Source of the DNA: Octopus vulgaris
Taxonomy: Eukaryota
DNA length: 64,000 nt
Assembly (NCBI GenBank): GCA_951406725.2
Contig: OX597822.1
Location: forward strand, 30,380,001-30,444,000
Direction: 5' to 3'
Made by a program: the position numbers and the translations under genes. Of this stretch, positions 5,776 to 61,514 are shown in pieces; the stretch's first letter is position 1; each line of letters begins with the position of its first letter. A model generated the notes under the pieces. That model was not told the DNA's origin, searched no databases, and saw nothing but the letters and a program-made list of their open reading frames with translations.

Positions 5776-7006
5776 AATATATATATTTTATATGAGTGTG
5801 TGTGTGCTCAAGTACAAATTATACTATATGTAATAACTTTAGAATTAAAATAGCAACGGCCAACAGACGAAAAACAATGCAGAGGCACATGGTGTTATGG
5901 ACATAATGACACAAACTCACCTTAACACACTTGCGAATATATTTATAACTAACTAAACACATGTACACACAGATTCCACTTATATGTCTTAGACATACAT
6001 ACTCAGAAATACTCACTATAACAACAAAAAGTAAAAAGAGAAAAATAAATGAAATGAACAAAGTACAAATATAAAAGAGAAATGAAACACTTAGCAAAAG
6101 AATGAAATACTTGTAAAAATCACGGATGTCGGGGCGCCCTACTTCCGGCCACGATATTAGCACTAACAAAACCAGCAGTATTAACCTGTTCTGCATATCA
6201 CAGATGCCTTTGACTACAACAGCGTGTGTAAAAAGCAAAGCAAAATCGTAAATTTAAACGAATGTTAAACACCGTAATTCTTTAGACAGAATCAGCTGTA
6301 TCTATATACGTAATTTTCATATAAAGAAGACTACGAATCATGCAAAATATATGTATCAGGCTCTTCACACTTTTTGGATATGTTTACAGTATTTTTCTGA
6401 ATTCTTCACATGCTAGTAAGTACTGCTAATTAATAATCAAATATTTTCCTGCATTATCTATGTCGATTGTTAGAAATGAACGAAAGATGTTCGTGCTCAC
6501 TCTGTGTTCGTACGAGTTTGTAAATAATTTTGAATGAAATCTCACAATGTACATTTGTTTTTGCCATTAAAAAAATTTTTTTTTCAGAACATGTTAGTAA
6601 TATCTCATACTCTGAATAATGATTCATTATTAACAGTTAAATTCTTGCTCGGCAATGCTTGGGAGTTAATTCTTTAGACATAATTTCATTCAGCGTATAT
6701 ATATATATATAATGCTTCTTCTTTGTCGGAAGAAATACACATACGCGCTCGAATGTACACATGGACATACGTATATTCAGTTCTCTCTCGCGTTCTCTCT
6801 CTCGTTCTTTCTCTATGTATTTGTGTAATTGTGTGTATGTATGTGAATATATGACTACACATACATACGTATCCATCCATCAATCAATCCTGTCTCCCAT
6901 CCATCCATCCATCCATCCATCCATCCATTCATCCTCACATTTATATATAAATATATGTATATATATGCATACATGCTTTGTATATCTATGAGTGTATATT
7001 TATATA

Positions 7007-8787: not shown

Positions 8788-10159
8788 GTTGGCATCCTTT
8801 TTGTCTCGGGAGACAATGGAGTTGCGGCATAAAATAGTCTAGTCCGGCTTTTACATCTCATGTCCTGATACATTTCCTGCTGTGGCTGTGTAGTCCTATC
8901 CAGGACAAACACTCCCTCTGGCTGGTACCGCAAATGTAGCGAATACTGTTTCTAGCTGGTTGTAATGCCATAGTTTCTTGTTGACGTCTTCTCTTGTTTT
9001 TCCATTTCTCCTCTCTCTCTCTGTCACTCCTTTTTATTCCCTCTTTTACGGTACGTCGCCAATCTCCACGGTTGACGGCAACTGCTTCCCAACCGCTAAT
9101 ATTGATGTTGCAGGCCTCCATGTCCCTTTTGCAAACATCCTTGTAACGTAAGAACGGGCTACCCACAGACCTAGTACCCTTAGCAAGCTCTCCGTAGAGT
9201 ATGTCCTTCGGGATTCTGCCATCTTTCATACGGCTAACATGCCCAAGCCATCTCATACGTCTTTGTGTGAGGAGTGCAAACATGCTTGGTATTCCTGCTT
9301 GCTTGAGGACATCTTTGTTGGGGATATGATTCTGCCATTTGATGCGGAGGATTTTCCGGAGGCAGCGCAGGTGAAAGATGTTTAGGCGACGCTCTTGGCG
9401 TGTGTATAGCGTCCAAGTCTCACTTCCATACAGTAGAGTGCTAAGTACACATGCCTGGTAGATCTTCATTTTCGTGGTCTTGGTCAGCTTATTGTTATCC
9501 CATGCCCGTTTGGTGAGTTGGGCCATCGCAGCAGCTGCCTTGCCAATGCGTATATTGAGCTCAGCGTCAAGGGATAGGTTGTAGGTGACGGTAGAGCCAA
9601 GATAGGTAAACTTCTCCACCTCTTGTAATCTGTGGTCTCCAATATGTATGTTTGGGATGTCCGATGTAGCCTGACCCATGATGTTGGTCTTCTTAAGGCT
9701 GATAGCTAAGCCAAAGTCGTAACATGCTTGCTCAAAACAGTTAATGAGCCTTTGGAGGGCTTCTTCTGTGTGTGATACCAGAGCGACATCATCAGCAAAT
9801 AGCAACTCCTTGATCAGGACGTTTCTGATTTTGGTCTTGGCACGCAGGTGCGAGAGAATGAACAGTTTCCCGTCACTTCTACTGTGCAGAAACACTCCAT
9901 CATCTGATGTCTGAAAGGCATGTGAGAGTAAGAGCGAGAAGAAGATGCCAAATAATGTAGGAGCAAGGACACAACCTTGCTTTACCCCGTTTTTTATTTG
10001 GAAGGCGGCTGATGTTGAACCATTGTGCTGTATGGTGCCTTGCATATCATCATGGAAAGACTTGATGATCCTCAGCAGCTTTGGTGGACATCCGATTTTT
10101 TGGAGCAGGATGAAGAGGCATGTTCTGCTTACCGAGTCAAAGGTCTTTGTTAGATCAAT
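8788..10159 (-). mobile_element. RTE-clade LINE, 3' part (RT core to C-terminus plus 3' UTR), uninterrupted ORF
   Basis: About 430 aa open: DLTKTFDSVSR, GVKQGCVLAPTLF, LLFADD, FTYLGS, LLYGSETW, RWLGHVSRM, GRIPKDILYGEL, CLSWIGLHSHSRKC; RTE-type tail CCATTGTCTCCCGAGACAAAAAGGATGCCAAC. Confidence 0.95.
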
Positions 10160-10491
10160 GTGTGTGTGCGTGTGTGTCTGTCTGTCTGTTTGTATGGGTG
10201 CATCACTGAAACTCGATAACTCTCCAATCTTCTTCATTCGAATTTTACATATACTTTATTTAGTGTTCATAGAGTGCCATGGGCCAAAAAAAAAAAAAAA
10301 TCCTCAACGACTTGCCTAATGCGAACTCGAAGCAATTTCTTCTCTCTTACACTGTTTCGGTATTAAATGTCAAATGTGAAACAATATCTCTATTGTGATG
10401 TGATATAATATTTTCCTATAATATGGTTTCAATTTCAATTACTTTTATTATGCATATATAGGCATGTTCGTTTATGTGTGTGTGTGTATAG

Positions 10492-11233: not shown

Positions 11234-11443
11234 TGCATATATATATATATAACTAATGTAGGATAAAAGTCTTTTCGGGATAAAATCTCATTAAAGGTTA
11301 AATTTATCAATAATTTACAAAATAAGGGCAAAAGAAAAGTTCTAAAGCCAAATATGCCGAAAAAAAGACAAAAATTGTCAATAACCATTATAATTTATGC
11401 GTCTCGAAACAAACCGATAGAAATTTCTAAAAAATCCGTTATT

Positions 11444-11500
11444 ACCGTATTGGTCCCAATTTCGGGGTTAATTCATAAGAATTTTCCCCTCTTCAGCGAT
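11444..11500 (-). ncRNA. Type I hammerhead ribozyme motif
   Basis: Minus strand ATCG-CTGAAGA-GGGGAAAATTCTTATGAATTAACCCC-GAAA-TTGGGACCAA-TA-CGGT: intact core and three pairable stems. Confidence 0.8.
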
Positions 11501-11799
11501 AAATACATTAGATATAAGTGAAATACTTACTCATACCCATGGAAAAAGCAAGCACTAAGTCTCGAGCAGACCTAAGTACCCCAAATATATCCAAAATAGA
11601 AAATCTTCGGCACATCTCGAGACACGTGTGATTCGAACTAGAAACTTTCACAGAGTGAGAGAATCCGGAAGTGAACACTATTCAATTTATAACTAATGTA
11701 GGATAAAATGTTTTTCGGGAAAAAATTTTATCAATGGCCAGCATATCAAAAAATACTTTAAAAGGTTAAATTTATCAATAATTTACAAAATAAGGGATT

Positions 11800-20594: not shown

Positions 20595-20619
20595 ATTTCT
20601 TTCTTTCTTTCTTTTTTCT

Positions 20620-21011
20620 TTTACTTGTTTCAGTCATTTGACTGCGGCCATGCTGGAGCACCGCCTTTAGTCGAGCAAATCGACCCCGGGACTTATTCTT
20701 TGTAAGCCCAGTACTTATTCTATCGGTTTTGCCGAACCGCTAAGTGACGGGGACGTAAACACACCAGCATCGGTTGTCATGCAATGCTAGGGGGACAAAC
20801 ACAGACACACAAACACACACACATACATATATATATATATACATATATACGACAGGCTTCTTTCAGTTTCCGTCTACCAAATCCACTCACAAGGCATTGG
20901 TCGACCCGGGGCTATAGCAGAAGACACTTGCCCAAGATGCCACGCAGTGGACTGAACCCGGAACCATGTGGTTGGTAAGCAAGCTACTTACCACACAGCC
21001 ACTCCTGCGCC
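20620..21011 (-). mobile_element. tRNA-like SINE type B, full length
   Basis: Near-identical reverse complement of 30776-31190. Confidence 0.92.
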
Positions 21012-21119: not shown

Positions 21120-21273
21120 GGGTGTGTGTGATTGTGTATAGAAGAACATATTAATAAACGGAGTTTCAACCTTGTCTGATTTTTACGTTTTATTTACAAT
21201 CTTATAGTGATATAATATAATATAATATAATAAAATAAAATAAAATAATAGAATGTTAAATGTTCATTCTGAT

Positions 21274-21318
21274 TGAACTAGTACTTTCATGCATTAAATT
21301 CTGCAATCTTCAGGTTCA
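21274..21318 (-). ncRNA. Type I hammerhead ribozyme motif (left arm of palindrome)
   Basis: Mirror image of 21463-21507. Confidence 0.7.
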
Positions 21319-21462
21319 TGTAGTAGTGGTGACAGTCATGCTTCACAATTTTTGACTGTAGCGAGATGATTAAATCTGTGCCTTAAATACTGTATTTAAG
21401 GCACAGATTTAATCATCTCGCTACAGTAAAAATTGTGAAGCATGACTGTCACCACTACTACA

Positions 21463-21507
21463 TGAACCTGAAGATTGCAGAATTTAATGCATGAAAGTAC
21501 TAGTTCA
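21463..21507 (+). ncRNA. Type I hammerhead ribozyme motif (right arm of palindrome)
   Basis: TGAAC-CTGAAGA-TTGCAGAATTTAATGCAT-GAAA-GTAC-TA-GTTCA; stem I TGAAC/GTTCA; self-complementary stem III AGTACT. Confidence 0.72.
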
Positions 21508-21710
21508 ATCAGAATGATCATTTAACATTCTGTTATTTTATTTTATTATATTATATTATCTTATAGTATATCATTATAAGATTGTAAATAAAACGTAAAA
21601 ATTAGACAAGGCTGGAACTCCTTTTATTAATATATATATATGTAGTGGACGCTGGAAAAAGTATAAGTATTTGTGAAGGAAATCTAATTCTCGCCGACAA
21701 CTATGATTGT

Positions 21711-21755
21711 CACACGCTGACGAGAGGTCAATACCTCGAAACTCGAGTCCGTGTG
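21711..21755 (+). ncRNA. Canonical type I hammerhead ribozyme motif (GUC site)
   Basis: CACACG-CTGACGA-GAGGT CAAT ACCTC-GAAA-CTCGAG-TC-CGTGTG: 6-bp stem I, 5-bp stem II, palindromic stem III; predicted cleavage after 21749. Confidence 0.9.
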
Positions 21756-21915
21756 TATCATAAGTTGAAGACGGGAAGGATGACTTCCCTTTGCAAATAC
21801 TGACAGGACACAGAAAGTGTGTCTATGGCCAGCTGGAGGAGTGTGTCCTCCTGGGGCTAAAAACTACAGTAGCATCCACCCTTAGGGGTAGCCATATTGA
21901 GATGGCAAATATACG

Positions 21916-21953
<38 letters not shown>

Positions 21954-22281
21954 TGAAATACACAATGGGACAAGAAAGCAAATCATCCGGACAGCTAGGT
22001 CATACAAAAAGGGGCAACAAAACATCCAGATAGACGATACAAAGAAAACAAGGACGGGTCATTGGAAGCCCTCTATCCTCAGTGAAGCATCAGATTATCC
22101 TCGCAATTTCGGCTGATTATTGTTGAGATTGATCCAATCTGGCCAGCCCTAAGGAAAAACTAAGTTAACAGCATTAGATTCCTTGGAAGAATGCAACGAA
22201 TATATACAAAAAACAAGGACGGAAAAAACGGACAAAGTTACACAAATATAAATACAATAAAAATAATAACATAATATATAT

Positions 22282-22440
22282 AGTGGCTGTGTGGAAAGTA
22301 GCTTGTTTACCAGCCACACGGTTCCGGGTTCAGTCCCACTGCGTGGCACCTTGGGACAGTGTCTTCTACTATAGCCTCGGGCCGACCAAAGCCTTGTGAG
22401 TGGATTTGGTAGACGGAAACTGAAAGAAGCCCGTCGTATA

Positions 22441-22482
<42 letters not shown>

Positions 22483-22693
22483 TGTGTGTGTTTTTGTGTC
22501 TGTGTTTGTCCCCCCAGCATTGCTTGACAACCGATGCTGGTGTGTTTACGTCCCCGTTGCTTAGCGGTTCGGCAAAAGAGACCGATAGAATAAGTACTGG
22601 GCTTACAAAAGAATAAGTCCCGGAGTCGAGTTGCTCGACTAAAGGCGGTGCTCCAGCATGGCCGCAGTCAAATGACTGAAACAAGTAAAAGAG
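22282..22693 (+). mobile_element. SINE type B
   Basis: Head to tail GGCGGTGCTCCAGCATGGCCGCAGTCAAATGACTGAAACAAGTAAAAGAG. Confidence 0.92.
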
Positions 22694-23964: not shown

Positions 23965-24300
23965 AAAGTTCTATATTTAAGAGATGAGGAATTATGTATA
24001 TTATTTACATTATTTACATTTGGCGGATGTTTGTCCTCATCTTTTTGTTGTTAACACATTTTGGCTGATATACCCTCCAGCCTTCATCAGGTGTCTTGGC
24101 GAAATTTCGAACATGGATTCTCATTCCTAAGGTATTTTTCGATTTTATTATTATCTTTTTTATTCATGTCAGTGCTTGTAATCAAACTCAGAATCTTGGG
24201 GTTAGTAGCCCGAGCTCTTAACCACTACTGCATATGCCCGTGGGAAATTACGGAGTGAATTTTAGGGCTTATAAATGTAATATTTTCCTATCCTTCCTTA
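23965..24300 (-). mobile_element. tRNA-promoter/hammerhead short element (copy 1, core partly decayed)
   Basis: Reverse complement of the 40900-41280 family. Confidence 0.8.
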
Positions 24301-24304
24301 ATAC

Positions 24305-24535
24305 CTCTTTCTTTACTACCCACAAGGGGCTAAACACAGAGAGGACAAACAAAGACGGACAAATGGATTAAGTCGATTATATGGACCCCAGTGTGTAACT
24401 GGTACTTATTTAATCGACCCCGAAAAGATGAAAGGCAAAGTCGACCTCGGCGGAATTTGAACTCAGAACGTAGCGGCAGACGAAATACTCCTAACCATTT
24501 CGCCCGGCGTGCTAACGTTTCTGCCAGATCGTCGC
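24305..24535 (-). mobile_element. SINE type C (Meta-domain-like)
   Basis: Reverse complement of 41688-41915. Confidence 0.88.
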
Positions 24536-25316
24536 CTTGATACCGGTTCCCATATACTACTCATATCTGCGCTAGGTCTGCTTAGGATGTTGTTGTGCCC
24601 TAACATATATGCTGCTTCTTTTAGTTTTCGTATTTTCCAGTGGTTTTCTCTGTCTATTATTTTAACTTCATCCCACAGGAGGAGGTGCTCTTCATTTTTT
24701 TCATACATGATCAGCTATACCCGATTTATCTCCTCGTGTCAGAGCTTTGCTATGTTCATCTACCCTTATTTTCAGGGGGCGGCATGTATTTTTTTTTTGT
24801 ATAACCTACCACAGCTGCATGGGATGGAGTACATGCTGTGTTTGGTCATATTCTCTTCTATTGGTGGTTTTACTCGCAGGAGATATTTGCGAAGTGTTGT
24901 ATTACACTTGAATACTGTCCTGATGTCATATGGGCCGCACATCTTTTGTATGTTTTCGGAGAGGCCTTTCACATAGGGTAGACAGACTGTGGACAATCTA
25001 TTGGTTTCATCGTCTCTTTTTTTTTTTCATAATTGGGGTGGGTAATATGCTTTTGGAGTAGTTGATGCTTAATAGATTGTTATTGACCTTGGTCATTTCT
25101 TCGTGGTGTGTATTACGATCGCTACTTATATTCTTTGCACGATGTTTTAGGCACTGAGCAATCTCTCTCTTTACGCTGTATGGATGGTGGGAAATTGAAG
25201 TTGAGGTGTCGTCCAATGAAGGTCGGCTTGCGGTATACGGATGTCCTGAATCCATACTTAGTGCGTGTTATTAATACGTCCAGGAATGCTAGCTGATTCT
25301 CTTTTTCCTTTTCCAT
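24536..25316 (-). mobile_element. Penelope-like element fragment (end of RT, linker, GIY-YIG endonuclease)
   Basis: LAFLDVLITR..TSVYRKPT, LPYVKGLSENIQK..VFKCNTTLRKYL, YSIPCSCGRLY, LWDEVKIIDRENHWKIRKLKEA; frameshifted. Confidence 0.92.
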
Positions 25317-26249
25317 TGTTTTTTTTTCCTTTTCCGTTGTGTTTTTCCTTTTCCATTGTCTGTTTCCCTTTCCATTGTCTTTTTACTATTCTAAGTGGTG
25401 TTAGATCATGTGACCCCTAAGAGTTAGTCACATTTAGGTGGCAAATATACTGCACGATATATAGAGTAAATCTACCCCCTCAAAAAAACCCCAAAAAACC
25501 CCAAACAAACGAAGAACAAACACAAAAAAACAACAACGCGTGGACGTAGTACATGCAAAGTATTAGCAGATGCTCAGGGAAGGAAAGAAGAGTAAAGCTG
25601 TAAAGCTCTTCTTCTGAAACAGGAGAGAGAGAAAAGTCCAAGAGAAAAGGAAGACGGAGGAAAAAAATAATCGCTAGCATTCACATGTCGTTACATCTTG
25701 AAATATATATATATATAATTGAATAAGATAGAGTCAACAAGGAGTACGGTTAGACAGTTATTTTCTAAATACTACACATGTTTCCATACAACAAATTTCT
25801 TCAGAGATACAGGAATTTTATTATGCAACGGTTTACCTGTAAAATGGAATACAGTTGTATTTCTTCAGGTGATATTCAATTGCTGTCCCCATTAGTTACA
25901 AAACCTTCGACTTCGATGCTAGTACATCCATCTGCCTTGCTTGAATTTAGTAGACGGCGGCAATTTCAAATCACTTACTGTTAACGCGTGCTTCTGCGTG
26001 TCTGGTATGAGTGTATTAGATGTTGTGGCTGTTTATTTTGTTCCTCATGTTAGCATGCATATGTGAAGTTTTATTATCCGACCTTCATTATTCGATGGTC
26101 CAGAGATACACATAGCCTCTCCCAGATATATATATTCATGCATGCATGCATGCCCATGTACACACGCAGATACACGCACATGCATATATATATATATAGA
26201 ACTATGTAAATTTAAATTAATGTATGTAGGAAGAAATCTGACATATATG

Positions 26250-27059: not shown

Positions 27060-27740
27060 AGGCTTCTACACATCCTCCGTCACCTAAATCCACCTAAATC
27101 CTTGTTCTTGATCAAGATCTGTGAAACTTCCTCTCTGTTTTCAAAGTTGAGTCTTTCTTTTCTTTGCTGTTGAAAGACTTATAAGACTTGCCAATTTTTT
27201 AGAATAGTCAGACTTGTTCATCACCACTGTAGCATTTACCTTGTCCGCTAGAAATATTACGATGGAATTGTCACTCTGTAGTCTTCTGATAGCGAACTTT
27301 TTCTTCCTTAGTAATGCTTCGTTTGAGAAATTTCGCTTTTCTAGTACCTGTCTCACTTTCCACCTTAGTTCATCTCCCTGAGCTTTTGGTATCTTTATGG
27401 CTATCACTTCATTAGGGGCTATTATGTCCAAGTATAGAATGCGCTTGATGTTTGTCGCAAAGTTGGGACCTTTGTGTAGTACTTCTTCATCAGAGCTTTC
27501 TAAATGTCAGTTATTTACATTAATTACTGCTTTCACAGGTGGGTGACGGACTTCAGTCTTCATGCTCTGACCTTTGAGTTTCATAAACTTCTTAAACCGG
27601 CGTGTCTTCACCATTTCAAATTTTTTCACGTATGACTTTTCTAGATCTTGTTGGATTATCTTTCTACCATCATCTCTGGCTATTTTCCTAAGTAATGAAG
27701 ATAAACCTCTCTTTGATTTCGTTATTTAGTTGATGTTTTT
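27060..27740 (-). mobile_element. Penelope-like element N-terminal/pre-RT fragment
   Basis: AIRRLQSDNSIVIFLADKVNATVVMNKSDYSKKL matches the PLE DKG motif; upstream LHKGPNFA-like motif. Confidence 0.8.
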
Positions 27741-28214
27741 TCCAACGGTTGTAATGGATCCTCTCACATTTATACCAATAATCAGTGCACTTGCTTTTGT
27801 AAATAAATACCTAAGTTACAATCTAGATACGATAGAGATTTCAGAAAAAGAAATCAACCATGTAACTCGCACATTACAAATACAGTCTGTAAGTCGAACA
27901 GTGAAAGTGTGGAAAATTTTCCTCGGGTATAAAACGTGACGTTAGTATCTACTTTCCAAAGATGGAGATTTGTATCTTTGTAAGAAACAAGCTCCTTCTA
28001 CAGAGGAAGAATTAAAATAATTAAAACAGAACTCGAGCGCGCAAGCACACGCACACATCCACATACGTATACAGCTACACACACACGCACATATACATAA
28101 CACAAACACATACGTACAAATGTATATATATATATATATATATGACATTTCATTATGATATCTTGTAATTTTGCACATATTTATAATTCATTCTATTTCA
28201 TTTTATTTCTGCAG

Positions 28215-28665
28215 TTCGTCATGGACGTAATTTAATATGGGCTGGTCGACCTTTAGATTACGACCGAGCTTCCATAGTTGGTATTGAAGGTGACCCAGAT
28301 AAATGGGTCCTTGACAAGAAAATGACTGTTAGGCAGATAAGTGCTCCGTCGCGTATGTGGCACTTCCGGAGTTTGGCATACTCTTATTCGACGAAGTACT
28401 TATACTGGAGTGAATCAGGACTAAAACGAATACAAGGTCTCGTTCTCGATGGATATAAGAAAGAGACAGATAACATATTTACTGGAACATCTGCTGAAGT
28501 TGACGGCTTAGCTGTCGACTGGATTTCGGGCAATGTCTATTGGACTGACGCTATATATAACTGGATTATGATGGTGCCGCTGCGGCCGAACCAAAAACGA
28601 TTCAAGATTGTAACTAAAGTGGGACTTGATAAGCCCCATGGGATTGCTGTATTACCACAAAAAGG
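28215..28665 (+). CDS. LRP-like protein, visible exon 1 (YWTD propeller 1, first part)
   Basis: ttctgcAG acceptor, GTGAGT donor; YLYWSE, VDGLAVDWISGNVYWTD, GLDKPHGIAVLP; intron phase 1 in, phase 2 out. Confidence 0.95.
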
Positions 28666-30004
28666 GTGAGTATTTTTCAATTATTTCTGATTTAGGATCA
28701 TCGGATTATAAATTCGCTAGATACTGCATTCAGTATATGAAAAGTTCATACAATCATACACACATATATGAATGAGAATGCATGCATATGCATGTGTAAG
28801 TATAGTGATATATGAAGAAATTTATATACAGGATCCGTTCAAAGGAAAATGCACACTAGTGATAGACGGATCATTAATTTTGAGTGACTAAAAATTCTAC
28901 TTCGTATATAGTCTACTACTCCCGTTTGTTTAATTAACCATACGTATATTGAAGATGCAGATGGATTTAAAAGAAGCGCACATTTAAAAGTGCCCCCATG
29001 CCTTGAATATCTGGTATGATCTGACTCGATGAATGAAACCTTGATTTCTGAGCTGACGTTGACCTGGGTGGGTATTAGGGTGTGATGAATAAGGATGGCA
29101 ATTTACTGCGCTTCGAGTAGAGGTGACGTATCATGAGTTAGTAATTAGATTCACTGTGCCCCACCTCGCAGCCATCAAACATAAGTTATTCCTAGATTGA
29201 AGTAGGAATTCTCAAAAAGAATATGTCATAAACCAGAGAGTAACGAAACAAATTGTCAGTAAGCAAAGAATAAATAAATAAATAATTATTGCATGGTTGG
29301 AGAGGTTCCAGTTGTGTCCGATTTGGTGTCGTGGTTATATATAATAGAAGTTTCTGTGCTCTTTCGTACTGCTGGAGCGAACCATACTTTCAGTAGGTGC
29401 TGAAATCGTTATGATTTATGGTTGACAGCTGATGAAGGAAGTATCATGCAGTGGCAACTGTATATATTATATGAGTGTGTGTTTGTGTGTGTAGCTGCGT
29501 ATGTGTGCATAAACAATGGATAGTGTGATATCTGAAGCATAATATATCAAGGAAAATGACAGTGTGGTCATGGCTGGAACACTTTGAGACAAACCTGCTC
29601 AAGACTAAACGGGCAACAAGTACCACCATTACCCCACCACCAGCGTTAGCAACACAAATTCTACCACTACCACTATCACAACAACAACAACAGGAACAAC
29701 AACATTAGTACAGTATACTATTAATAAATACTCTGGGGCTGAGACCCATAAAGCGCACCTTCGGCAGTGTCTTGTAAGGAAGCCGTGAGGAAACTCACGC
29801 ACGCTATTATGACGACAGTCTCTTCATAACATTTTCCTTTCTTTTTTTTTTAATGAGAAGATAACAACTTTTGCAACCAAATAAATCTTCCTTCTTCGCC
29901 TTCGTGTTGGCAAAACTTAAAAAGGTTACAGCTACCTAAAATTTCATTAAAAATGGCGTCCTTTTTAATCATCATAGTAATTAGAAACGGGTAATATGAA
30001 AGAT

Positions 30005-31949: not shown

Positions 31950-32148
31950 ACAGTTCTATACTTAAGAGATGACGAATTCTGTACATCATTTTCATTATTT
32001 ACATTATTTATATTCGACGGATGTTTGTCCTCATCTTGTTTGTTGTTAACACAACGTTTCGACTGATATGCCCTCCAGCCTTCTTCAGGTGTCTTGGGGG
32101 AAATTTCGAACCTGGGCTCTCATTCCTAAGGTATTTTTCGATGTTATG

Positions 32149-32212
<64 letters not shown>

Positions 32213-32277
32213 TAATAATAATAATAATAATGATAATAATAATAATGATAATAATAATAATAATAATAATAATGATG

Positions 32278-32314
<37 letters not shown>

Positions 32315-32590
32315 CAATAATAATAATAATAATAATAATAATAATTATTATTATTATTATTATTATTATTATCATCATTATTGTTATTATTATTGTTCAG
32401 GTTACTGCTTGGAATCCGACCTCGGAATCTTGGGGTTAGTAACCTGGGCTCTTAACCACTACGCCATATGGAGTGAATTTTAGGGCTTATAAATCTAATA
32501 TAAGGCTGGAGGGTATATCAGCCGAAACGTTGTGTTAACAACAAACACGATGGCAAATATATATCGAATGTAAATAATGTAAATAAAACT
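31950..32590 (-). mobile_element. tRNA-promoter/hammerhead element (copy 2) with expanded (AAT)n and an inverted partial 3' duplicate at 32502-32590
   Basis: Minus strand GACAC-CTGAAGA-AGGCTGGAGGGCATATCAGTC-GAAA-CG-TT-GTGTT at about 32047-32093; A and B boxes at about 32410-32462. Confidence 0.82.
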
Positions 32591-40246: not shown

Positions 40247-40454
40247 ATTAATATAGGATGACCTAGCATATATAAAATGTCAATAGACAACATATTTATT
40301 TTCTGTATAAAATTAGTGTACATTTAAACACAAAAGAAGCGACCCTTAACAGACAGCCTTACATGCTAGAAGGAGTAGTCAAAATAGCCAAAACCACATT
40401 TTAAAGCAATTTCGAAGTGAATGAAAAATGAAAAAAAATGACCTTGTTTTTTAC

Positions 40455-40524
40455 AGCCATACCTAGATTTCGAATCTAAATAGCAAATAAAATTATTTGC
40501 TTAGCGAAATTCTCATCAGTGGCT
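40455..40524 (-). ncRNA. Type I hammerhead ribozyme motif with long stem II
   Basis: Minus strand AGCCA-CTGATGA-GAATTT..AGCAAATAATTTTATTTGCT..AGATTC-GAAA-TCTAGG-TA-TGGCT. Confidence 0.82.
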
Positions 40525-40899
40525 ACGCCAAAAAGCTAACATATAACTTAGAGACAGAATAACACGTGTCTCATCATTATATATTAAAATCTTTCAAATT
40601 CACCGCGCAAGCGCGGTTTCAATCGGCAGCAAATGAAAAGTGTCGAATTAACTTCCGAAATTTCTAAAATCATATTCATAACTTCATACAGGATAGCAAA
40701 ATTTTAGAAATTTCACTACCAGTGGCCTAGCATGTATGAAAATAGACAACATATTTTCCATTTAAAATTAACGTACATTTAAACACAAAAGAGGCGACCC
40801 TTAACAGGCAGCTTTACATGCTAGAAGGAGCAGGTAGGCCACTGGTAGTGAAATTTCTAAAATTTTACTATCCTATATAAATTTATGAATATAATTTTA

Positions 40900-41280
<381 letters not shown>

Positions 41281-61161: not shown

Positions 61162-61322
61162 TTATTTAAAGCAGCAGAAAATTCAACAAAATCTGTTACT
61201 CTGAGTTTCTCGTTGCCGTTCATCAGACAGTTTTTGTTAGAATCTAACAAAAACTGTCTGATGAACGGCAACGAGAAACTCAGAGTAACAGATTTTGTTG
61301 AATTTTCTGCTGCTTTAAATAA
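61162..61322. repeat. Near-perfect palindrome with arms of about 80 bp, each carrying a hammerhead-like motif
   Basis: TTATTTAAAGCAGCAG...TTTTTGTTAGA-A-TCTAACAAAAA...CTGCTGCTTTAAATAA; the right arm contains CTGT-CTGATGA-ACGGCAACGA-GAAA-CTCAGAG-TA-ACAG. Confidence 0.92.
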
Positions 61323-61514
61323 TATATATATATATATATATATATACAAAATTTAGAGGACTGAACACTAAAAGTGGACAGCCTATACCCTAGATATAGA
61401 CGTCAAAATCGCTATTTTCCACGAATAATGTGTTCTCAAGAAAAAACTCAGCAAAAAACCAAAGTGTAAAAATAAGCAACTCAAAAGAAAATATACGAAA
61501 TAAAAAACGATTAC

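Follow-up and report, generated by a model that had tools for sequence, protein, structure and literature searches.

A canonical hammerhead motif in an intron of Octopus vulgaris lies within an incomplete copy of an abundant ~353-nt repeat family, likely a non-LTR retrozyme

The window (all 64,000 nucleotides of the Octopus vulgaris stretch analyzed) holds the first two coding exons of an LRP4-like gene, both on the plus strand, and the first coding intron between them (6416-28214; 21.8 kb) contains the hammerhead unit described here (Table 1). Exon sequence from 28217 to 28663 is 100% identical to LRP4 isoform X3 of Octopus sinensis, and one exon 1 residue differs from that record. The original prediction placed the hammerhead in the sense orientation of an intron, provided that an LRP-like transcript starts upstream of it, and the two flanking exons bear this out. 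The left boundary of the unit was taken from loose contig ends and the right boundary from the start of the (TA)n tract. An earlier description of a ~280-bp unit at 21640-21920 flanked by (TA)n was thus right as to a repeat-flanked unit, but its bounds are now 21644-21919, and the 5' (AT)n tract has only about six repeats. Both flanks are AT repeats, and no unique target-site duplication can be distinguished; in non-LTR retrozymes such duplications, when present, are longer than 4 bp. The motif had also been said to follow immediately on the palindrome to its left, but it starts 77 nt past the palindrome end (21633).

Table 1. Features of the locus, with window coordinates and the basis of each call.
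Feature	Coordinates	Strand	Basis or remark
First coding exon, LRP4-like gene	6340-6415	+	Protein mapping
Palindrome (~95%), two head-to-head arms, separate family	21148-21633		Repeat and structural scans
Short (AT)n tract between palindrome and unit	21630-21643		Sequence reading
Unit: incomplete copy of the likely retrozyme family, 276 bp of ~353-nt monomer	21644-21919	+	Contigs of runs, folding
Predicted long rod extending stem I, ribozyme at its tip	21661-21803	+	Folding
Canonical type I hammerhead	21711-21755	+	Direct reading, Rfam match, structural scan
Loop II drawn as 6 nt	21728-21733	+	Last A (21733) is the predicted partner of U21756
(TA)n tract, likely insertion target	21920-21954		Directly after 3' end of unit
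Broken Penelope-like ORF (reverse transcriptase end and endonuclease region)	24270-25385	-	Homologues
Family-related 3' end only	25415-25455	+	32/41 identical to unit, same end point
Second coding exon, LRP4-like gene	28215-28666	+	Protein mapping

The unit has a GC content of 46% and stop codons in all six frames. It folds stably (z = -6.3; 0/200 shuffles were equally stable), but the reverse strand scores alike (z = -6.05), and folding stability therefore does not mark a strand. The unit contains no exact match to the consensus Pol III A or B box, its 3' hairpins fit no Rfam family, and exact-pattern scans for relatives yielded none in metagenome contigs and none in viral contigs; a single bacterial match, to the 25-nt pattern only, was taken as chance. 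A short terminal inverted match (21643-21651 with 21914-21921) was considered as the mark of a DNA transposon, a reading that was rejected because family contigs continue past both ends of the unit.

Read directly, the motif consists of a 6-bp stem I, all Watson-Crick (21711-21716 with 21750-21755), the core CUGAcGA (21717-21723), GAA at 21738-21740, and a 5-bp stem II (21724-21728 with 21733-21737) capped by a 4-nt loop; Rfam draws the same stem II as 4 bp with a 6-nt loop. An 8-nt palindrome (21741-21748) occupies the helix III region, and C17 of the GUC triplet is at 21749. From C17, the cut is predicted 3' of C21749, the same position that was originally expected, and direct reading confirmed the stem and loop lengths given at that time. 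The core CUGANGA, GAAA, UH, and three helices, open at helix I, all conform to a type I hammerhead. The bases for a contact between loops I and II are also present, in that U1.7 (U21756) is unpaired and the last A of loop II is A21733; an A21733-U21756 contact is predicted. This type of contact has been described, and its necessity questioned, in PMC11875169.

Compared with Rfam family RF00163 (Hammerhead_1), 21711-21755 aligned without gaps over positions 1-45 of 45. The score of 32.2 bits narrowly misses the gathering threshold of 34; the E value was 7.8e-6 when 1.2 kb was scanned and 7.9e-7 when 121 nt were. The entire window gave no RF00163 match at that threshold. The consensus, which we take to be of the Schistosoma Sm-alpha type, has the same stem lengths, a loop II ending in AAUA, a GUC triplet, and likewise an 8-nt palindrome at the helix III position, whereas the stem sequences differ. 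The structural scan was controlled by 300 block-wise dinucleotide shuffles of the window: two strict motifs (stem I at least 6, stem II at least 5) were found in the window versus none in each of the 300 shuffles, three with a palindromic stem III versus 0/300, and five loose motifs versus a shuffle mean of 0.017. The hammerhead is not a chance match; direct reading, gap-free alignment, and shuffle controls agree on the textbook GUC hammerhead with an intact core that was first reported.

The original prediction did not recognize that the unit is a dispersed, incomplete copy of a family whose members are arranged head to tail. At least 67% of sampled words were found in 20 of the 24 listed runs (10 studies, eight organism labels), and four of the 24 (X2, X3, X16, and X18, the last two being RNA by guess only, as none of the listed runs is on record as RNA) were aligned to 21400-21925. 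No position with an accumulation of molecule ends was reported in these alignments, an observation that carries no information on cleavage. X2 alone placed 3,161 contigs, mostly 90-99% alike, on this stretch, which includes one palindrome arm; contigs give no copy number, but the family has many copies. In record 9 of X18 (383 nt), letters 1-29 correspond to 21861-21889 and letters 137-382 to 21644-21889; the contig thus closes on itself with a period of 353 nt. Joining of family members head to tail, as a DNA tandem or as a circle, fits this one cyclic contig of one run, in which a DNA tandem and an RNA circle are indistinguishable; the joint table of X18 omitted rows near repeats. Loose ends in X2 and X16 stop at 21644, where they have a common 12-letter lead-in that is absent from the window, and two X16 contigs continue past 21919 with sequence not found in the window. 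The X16 loose ends support the 353-nt cycle, being consistent with some 76 additional letters. Over 21644-21889 (246 nt), one X3 contig shows no difference from the window, and loose ends in X3 and X18 revealed sister sequences with the same 3' half and other 5' halves. Overall, the family is abundant in Octopus, is ~353 nt long, and is non-coding. In X2 and X16, contig depth was higher in the 3' half than in the 5' half, although contig depth cannot rank parts. X18 record 10 and X3 record 26 have only about 21773-21823 in common with the unit; the former is 351 nt long, carries a hammerhead-like 3' strand just upstream, and is perhaps a second retrozyme family.

By simple arithmetic, the window copy holds about 78% of the 353-nt monomer, lacking about 76 nt and one base near 21889; the missing ~76 letters had no match within the window. 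The copy begins 106 nt before the cut site and ends 170 nt after it, and the site is intact. No tandem of the unit is found at this locus, the core plus palindrome occurring once in the window, and the two or more hammerhead units that Li et al. expect of an active copy are not seen here. The window copy is a solo derivative and no source locus.

Variation within the family was scored at positions differing in at least 5% of some run. Twenty-one positions in 21644-21889 were variable, and the six inside the hammerhead were N7 (21721) and five in stem-loop II. The 30 positions that make up the core, stem I, and helix III had none of them (P = 6e-4 when the motif alone is considered), with the caveat that the position classes were chosen after seeing the data and that the variants are unphased and related; relative to the whole unit, the lack of core variation reached only P = 0.057. 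A21725>G and T21736>C, each in five contigs of X16 but unphased, would replace an A-U pair by G-C. C21737>A was commoner than its would-be partner G21724>T (43,560 versus 19,167 in X2, and 60.6 versus 4.8 in X16), so that the pair at the foot of stem II may be mismatched in one subfamily. The motif has five CpG sites: two beside core guanines vary at C and not at G, and three in stems I and III are not among the listed variable positions. The sparing of the core, together with the 246-nt identity, would suit recent spread under selection for cleavage.

The palindromic stem III had been claimed to favor dimer-dependent cleavage. By nearest-neighbor folding, two copies of 21696-21770 are predicted to form, unconstrained, a strand-swapped double hammerhead at -53.1 kcal/mol, versus -48.4 (2 x -24.2) for two single copies; a single copy favors a misfold 5.9 kcal/mol below the hammerhead fold, and its helix III pairs have near-zero predicted probability, all of these energies leaving out the tertiary core of the hammerhead. 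Folding thus favors the dimer, and cleavage that is helped by dimerization is likely. A palindromic stem III is nevertheless not special, because it is found in the RF00163 consensus, because the usual metazoan form is a helix III of 1-2 bp with a small palindromic loop (PMC4209133), and because related motifs cut as monomers: the invertebrate form consists of two base pairs and a tetraloop, and the cleavage rates measured for monomeric retrozyme clones were about 0.8 per min in coral and about 0.1 per min in mussel (PMC7229834). The palindrome is therefore the ordinary layout of such families. Eight of nine frog dimer elements assayed did not cut, according to the Li et al. preprint (10.64898/2026.07.22.740005). 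The most likely behavior of 21711-21755 would be slow cleavage as a monomer, helped by a dimer. A second copy of the palindrome 21741-21748 as a partner in cis is not present within the window, and a cis heterodimer with a hammerhead of the neighboring palindrome was rejected, as the two helix III palindromes form no duplex (0.0 kcal/mol).

That neighboring palindrome (Table 1) is a separate element with its own worn hammerheads, which the original prediction did not recognize. The hammerheads, at 21463-21507 (+) and 21274-21318 (-), have a 6-nt palindromic helix III that mismatches that of the unit, UA at the cut site, and a U-U mismatch at the foot of stem II; X3 and X16 family contigs carry C at 21469, the core U4 position. 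The element has its own contigs and loose ends, with no bridge to the unit among the contig pieces listed, and a relative at 973-1125. Its arm lacked cover in X18. Rfam microRNA matches around 21325-21456, all below cut-offs, reflect the palindrome and were set aside.

A further repeated element occurs at 40896-41278 (+), 23967-24270 (-), 31951-32500 (-), and 32502-32586 (+). It has a tRNA-like head (B-box match at 40941, although ARAGORN calls no tRNA), an AT-rich spacer (in two of the copies, a long AAT microsatellite), a minimal hammerhead, and a tail common to the copies. Because two of its copies follow the end of a Penelope ORF, the element may represent a terminal repeat of Penelope in which a Pol III promoter precedes the ribozyme. 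Minimal hammerheads in the window are at 41148-41193 and 32048-32093, and Penelope remnants with such hammerheads occur in the same window as the unit, a co-occurrence also known from the species of PMC7229834. Hammerheads with a hairpin helix III and a long stem II were seen at 40453-40526 (-) and 11442-11502 (-); both are antisense to the LRP4-like gene, and neither has a second copy in the window. In addition, 61162-61330 is a 99% inverted pair of short arms with a hammerhead-like core in each.

A link between the family and Penelope is suggested by the short stretch at 25415-25455. In a window-wide test of its likeness to the unit, one of 200 shuffles reached the score, which is modest, but by eye 27 of 30 letters also matched an X16 loose end. 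The stretch ends at the same base as the unit, is likewise followed by AT-rich repeats, and faces, head to head, the broken Penelope-like ORF at its 5' truncation. A reverse transcriptase-bearing homologue matches that ORF with 77% identity over 35 residues and 52% over 174; Pfam found no families in four Penelope fragments, and the Penelope identity thus rests on homologues. The abutting of a family 3' end on a Penelope ORF is a lead, from a single junction, that would point to Penelope as the mobilizing enzyme, but it is possible that the two pieces inserted independently. The window has similar twin arms at 21148-21633, 32501/32502, and 61162-61330; Penelope insertions typically include truncated copies in inverted orientation (Craig et al.). 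The unit itself showed no significant likeness to the Penelope terminal repeats of the window, as 34 to 237 of 1000 shuffles reached the score, the best likeness being 34/1000 with only four window pieces available to compare; nor was there significant likeness to any of eight targets (Penelope 3' regions and other hammerhead elements). Animal retrozymes have been described as having no conserved motif that points to a partner (PMC7761336). A 19-bp unit repeated 4.6 times (25296-25384) is placed precisely where the Penelope ORF is truncated on its 5' side and is possibly due to template slippage as the element inserted. A second broken Penelope-like remnant, 27100-27780 (-), has an N-terminal region and a degenerate DKG motif.

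Among known systems, the retrozymes of Mytilus galloprovincialis (Cervera and de la Pena 2020, PMC7229834) are close in size, at 350-390 bp versus 353 nt. Like the Octopus family, they have a canonical type I hammerhead, are non-coding with GC under 50%, strongly self-paired, and arranged head to tail, and Penelope elements are found in the same genome. The differences are the cephalopod host, the single 78% piece without a tandem in the window, and the fixed-looking 3' end at (TA)n; the likeness is drawn from published descriptions. The GC content of the unit is above the published retrozyme limit of "<45%" (figure legend) but below that of "<50%" (text). Vertebrate retrozyme monomers (Li, Clavereau and Pollet 2026) are similarly dispersed solo copies, regarded as offspring of tandem sources, often intronic, and proposed in the preprint to be moved by Penelope. 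Of the 57 families in that survey, 24 had matches among known elements, which were almost all Penelope; the unit, in contrast, had no significant match to the Penelope elements of the window. The window copy is under the 80% "full-length" bar used there, and no molluscs were among the animals sampled. Minimal Penelope hammerheads have in common with 21711-21755 the type I topology, a palindromic helix III, the dimer model, and dispersed single copies, but their helix II is 7-8 bp and their helix I 4-5 bp long, they carry an additional base following position 9, and helix III is very short or absent; none of these minimal traits is present here. The hammerhead is canonical and non-minimal, the unit is non-coding, low in GC, and strongly self-paired, and, at the family level, the monomer length of 353 nt (from one cyclic contig) lies within the 150-450 nt range for head-to-tail units. 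The testable features of non-LTR retrozymes are thus found at the level of the family, and by analogy retrozyme function is likely.

We therefore favor, with a probability of roughly 80%, a reading in which a canonical hammerhead lies in an incomplete copy of a ~353-nt head-to-tail repeat, likely a non-LTR retrozyme and probably copied by Penelope. Tandem source loci would be transcribed, the hammerhead would cut the transcript into 353-nt monomers, and these would be ligated to circles and then copied back into DNA, probably by the Penelope reverse transcriptase; we infer transcription, cleavage, and circles from work on mussel, coral, and axolotl. To judge by its anatomy, the template of the window copy was likely a circle or an uncut multimer, because the copy runs through an intact cut site and has both of its ends at other positions. 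Copying would have proceeded from a fixed 3' point (21919) at the (TA)n target and halted about 76 nt short. Having a single hammerhead, this copy can by itself release neither monomer nor circle. At most it would nick the LRP4-like pre-mRNA, at a slow rate as a monomer and at a higher one if the palindrome paired in trans with another family RNA.

The unit might instead be a terminal repeat (pLTR), truncated on its 5' side, that belongs to an autonomous Penelope-like element, with the hammerhead processing the element's own transcript. Type I hammerheads, some with a small palindromic helix III, do occur in Penelope pLTRs (PMC4209133), most insertions are 5'-truncated (Li et al. preprint), and the family 3' end at the truncated end of the Penelope ORF (25385-25455) is where an inverted copy of the element's own end would be expected (Craig et al.). 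However, a 353-nt cycle leaves no room for an ORF, and there is none at this locus; the motif is canonical, with a 6-bp stem I and no extra base before stem II, rather than minimal; and the 3' region that comes after the 24-25 kb Penelope remnant, 23967-24270, is a different one, has a minimal hammerhead, and is present in the window in four pieces, none significantly like the unit. We consider a pLTR origin unlikely.

Two other explanations accept the repeat family but not its present mobility through RNA, or not its passivity in the host gene. A hammerhead satellite that propagates as DNA or has lost its activity, with no circles today, would account equally well for the cyclic contig, which can arise from DNA tandems; the Li et al. 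preprint also proposes local tandem amplification from Penelope ends, and eight of its nine dimers were inactive. A solitary copy that ends at (TA)n and shares 246 nt without a difference with a contig from another run, in a family whose variation spares the core, makes such a satellite very improbable. Adoption of the hammerhead by the host, as a regulator of splicing or turnover of the LRP4-like pre-mRNA of the kind proposed for amniote intronic hammerheads, has the sense orientation in the first coding intron and the intact core and U1.7 in its favor, and domesticated intronic hammerheads have been described (PMC6155905). This is nevertheless one of very many copies, its letter-for-letter match to a contig of another run indicates that it inserted recently, at least six further hammerhead-like motifs are present in the window, in either orientation, and about 44% of frog retrozyme copies lie in introns. 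A regulatory role is hardly to be expected, and the copy is probably an intron passenger.

Returning to the non-LTR retrozyme reading, the hammerhead motif itself is ordinary, and retrozymes were already known from mussels and corals. In the literature searched, which included few subscription papers and not the invertebrate supplement of PMC7229834, no description of a cephalopod retrozyme was found, and this Octopus family would extend retrozymes to the cephalopods. Which reverse transcriptase moves animal retrozymes is a question that the fusion of a family 3' end with a Penelope ORF addresses; the link to Penelope is testable because two pieces have an identical end point in front of AT repeats, that 3' part recurs in sister sequences, and one piece is fused to the end of the ORF. 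A near-consensus copy is also a ready construct for an assay of monomer versus dimer cleavage. A bolder version is that Octopus harbors an active superfamily of ~350-nt retrozyme circles that differ in their hammerhead halves and whose common 3' terminus primes Penelope reverse transcriptase into (TA)n, with 25385-25455 being a two-template insertion. We regard this as doubtful, but, if true, it would name the enzyme and priming site for animal retrozymes, and abundant circles could pair with and cut many sense intronic copies in trans.

Two other features of the intron may be mentioned. Inverted SINE-like repeats about 1.3 kb apart (20617-21003 and 22282-22692) bracket the palindrome and the unit, and this pair together with the palindrome could form long double-stranded RNA in the intron. 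Farther to the left, 8858-10255 (-) is a 465-codon open frame that was judged by eye to be a LINE (RTE-type) reverse transcriptase-like fragment.
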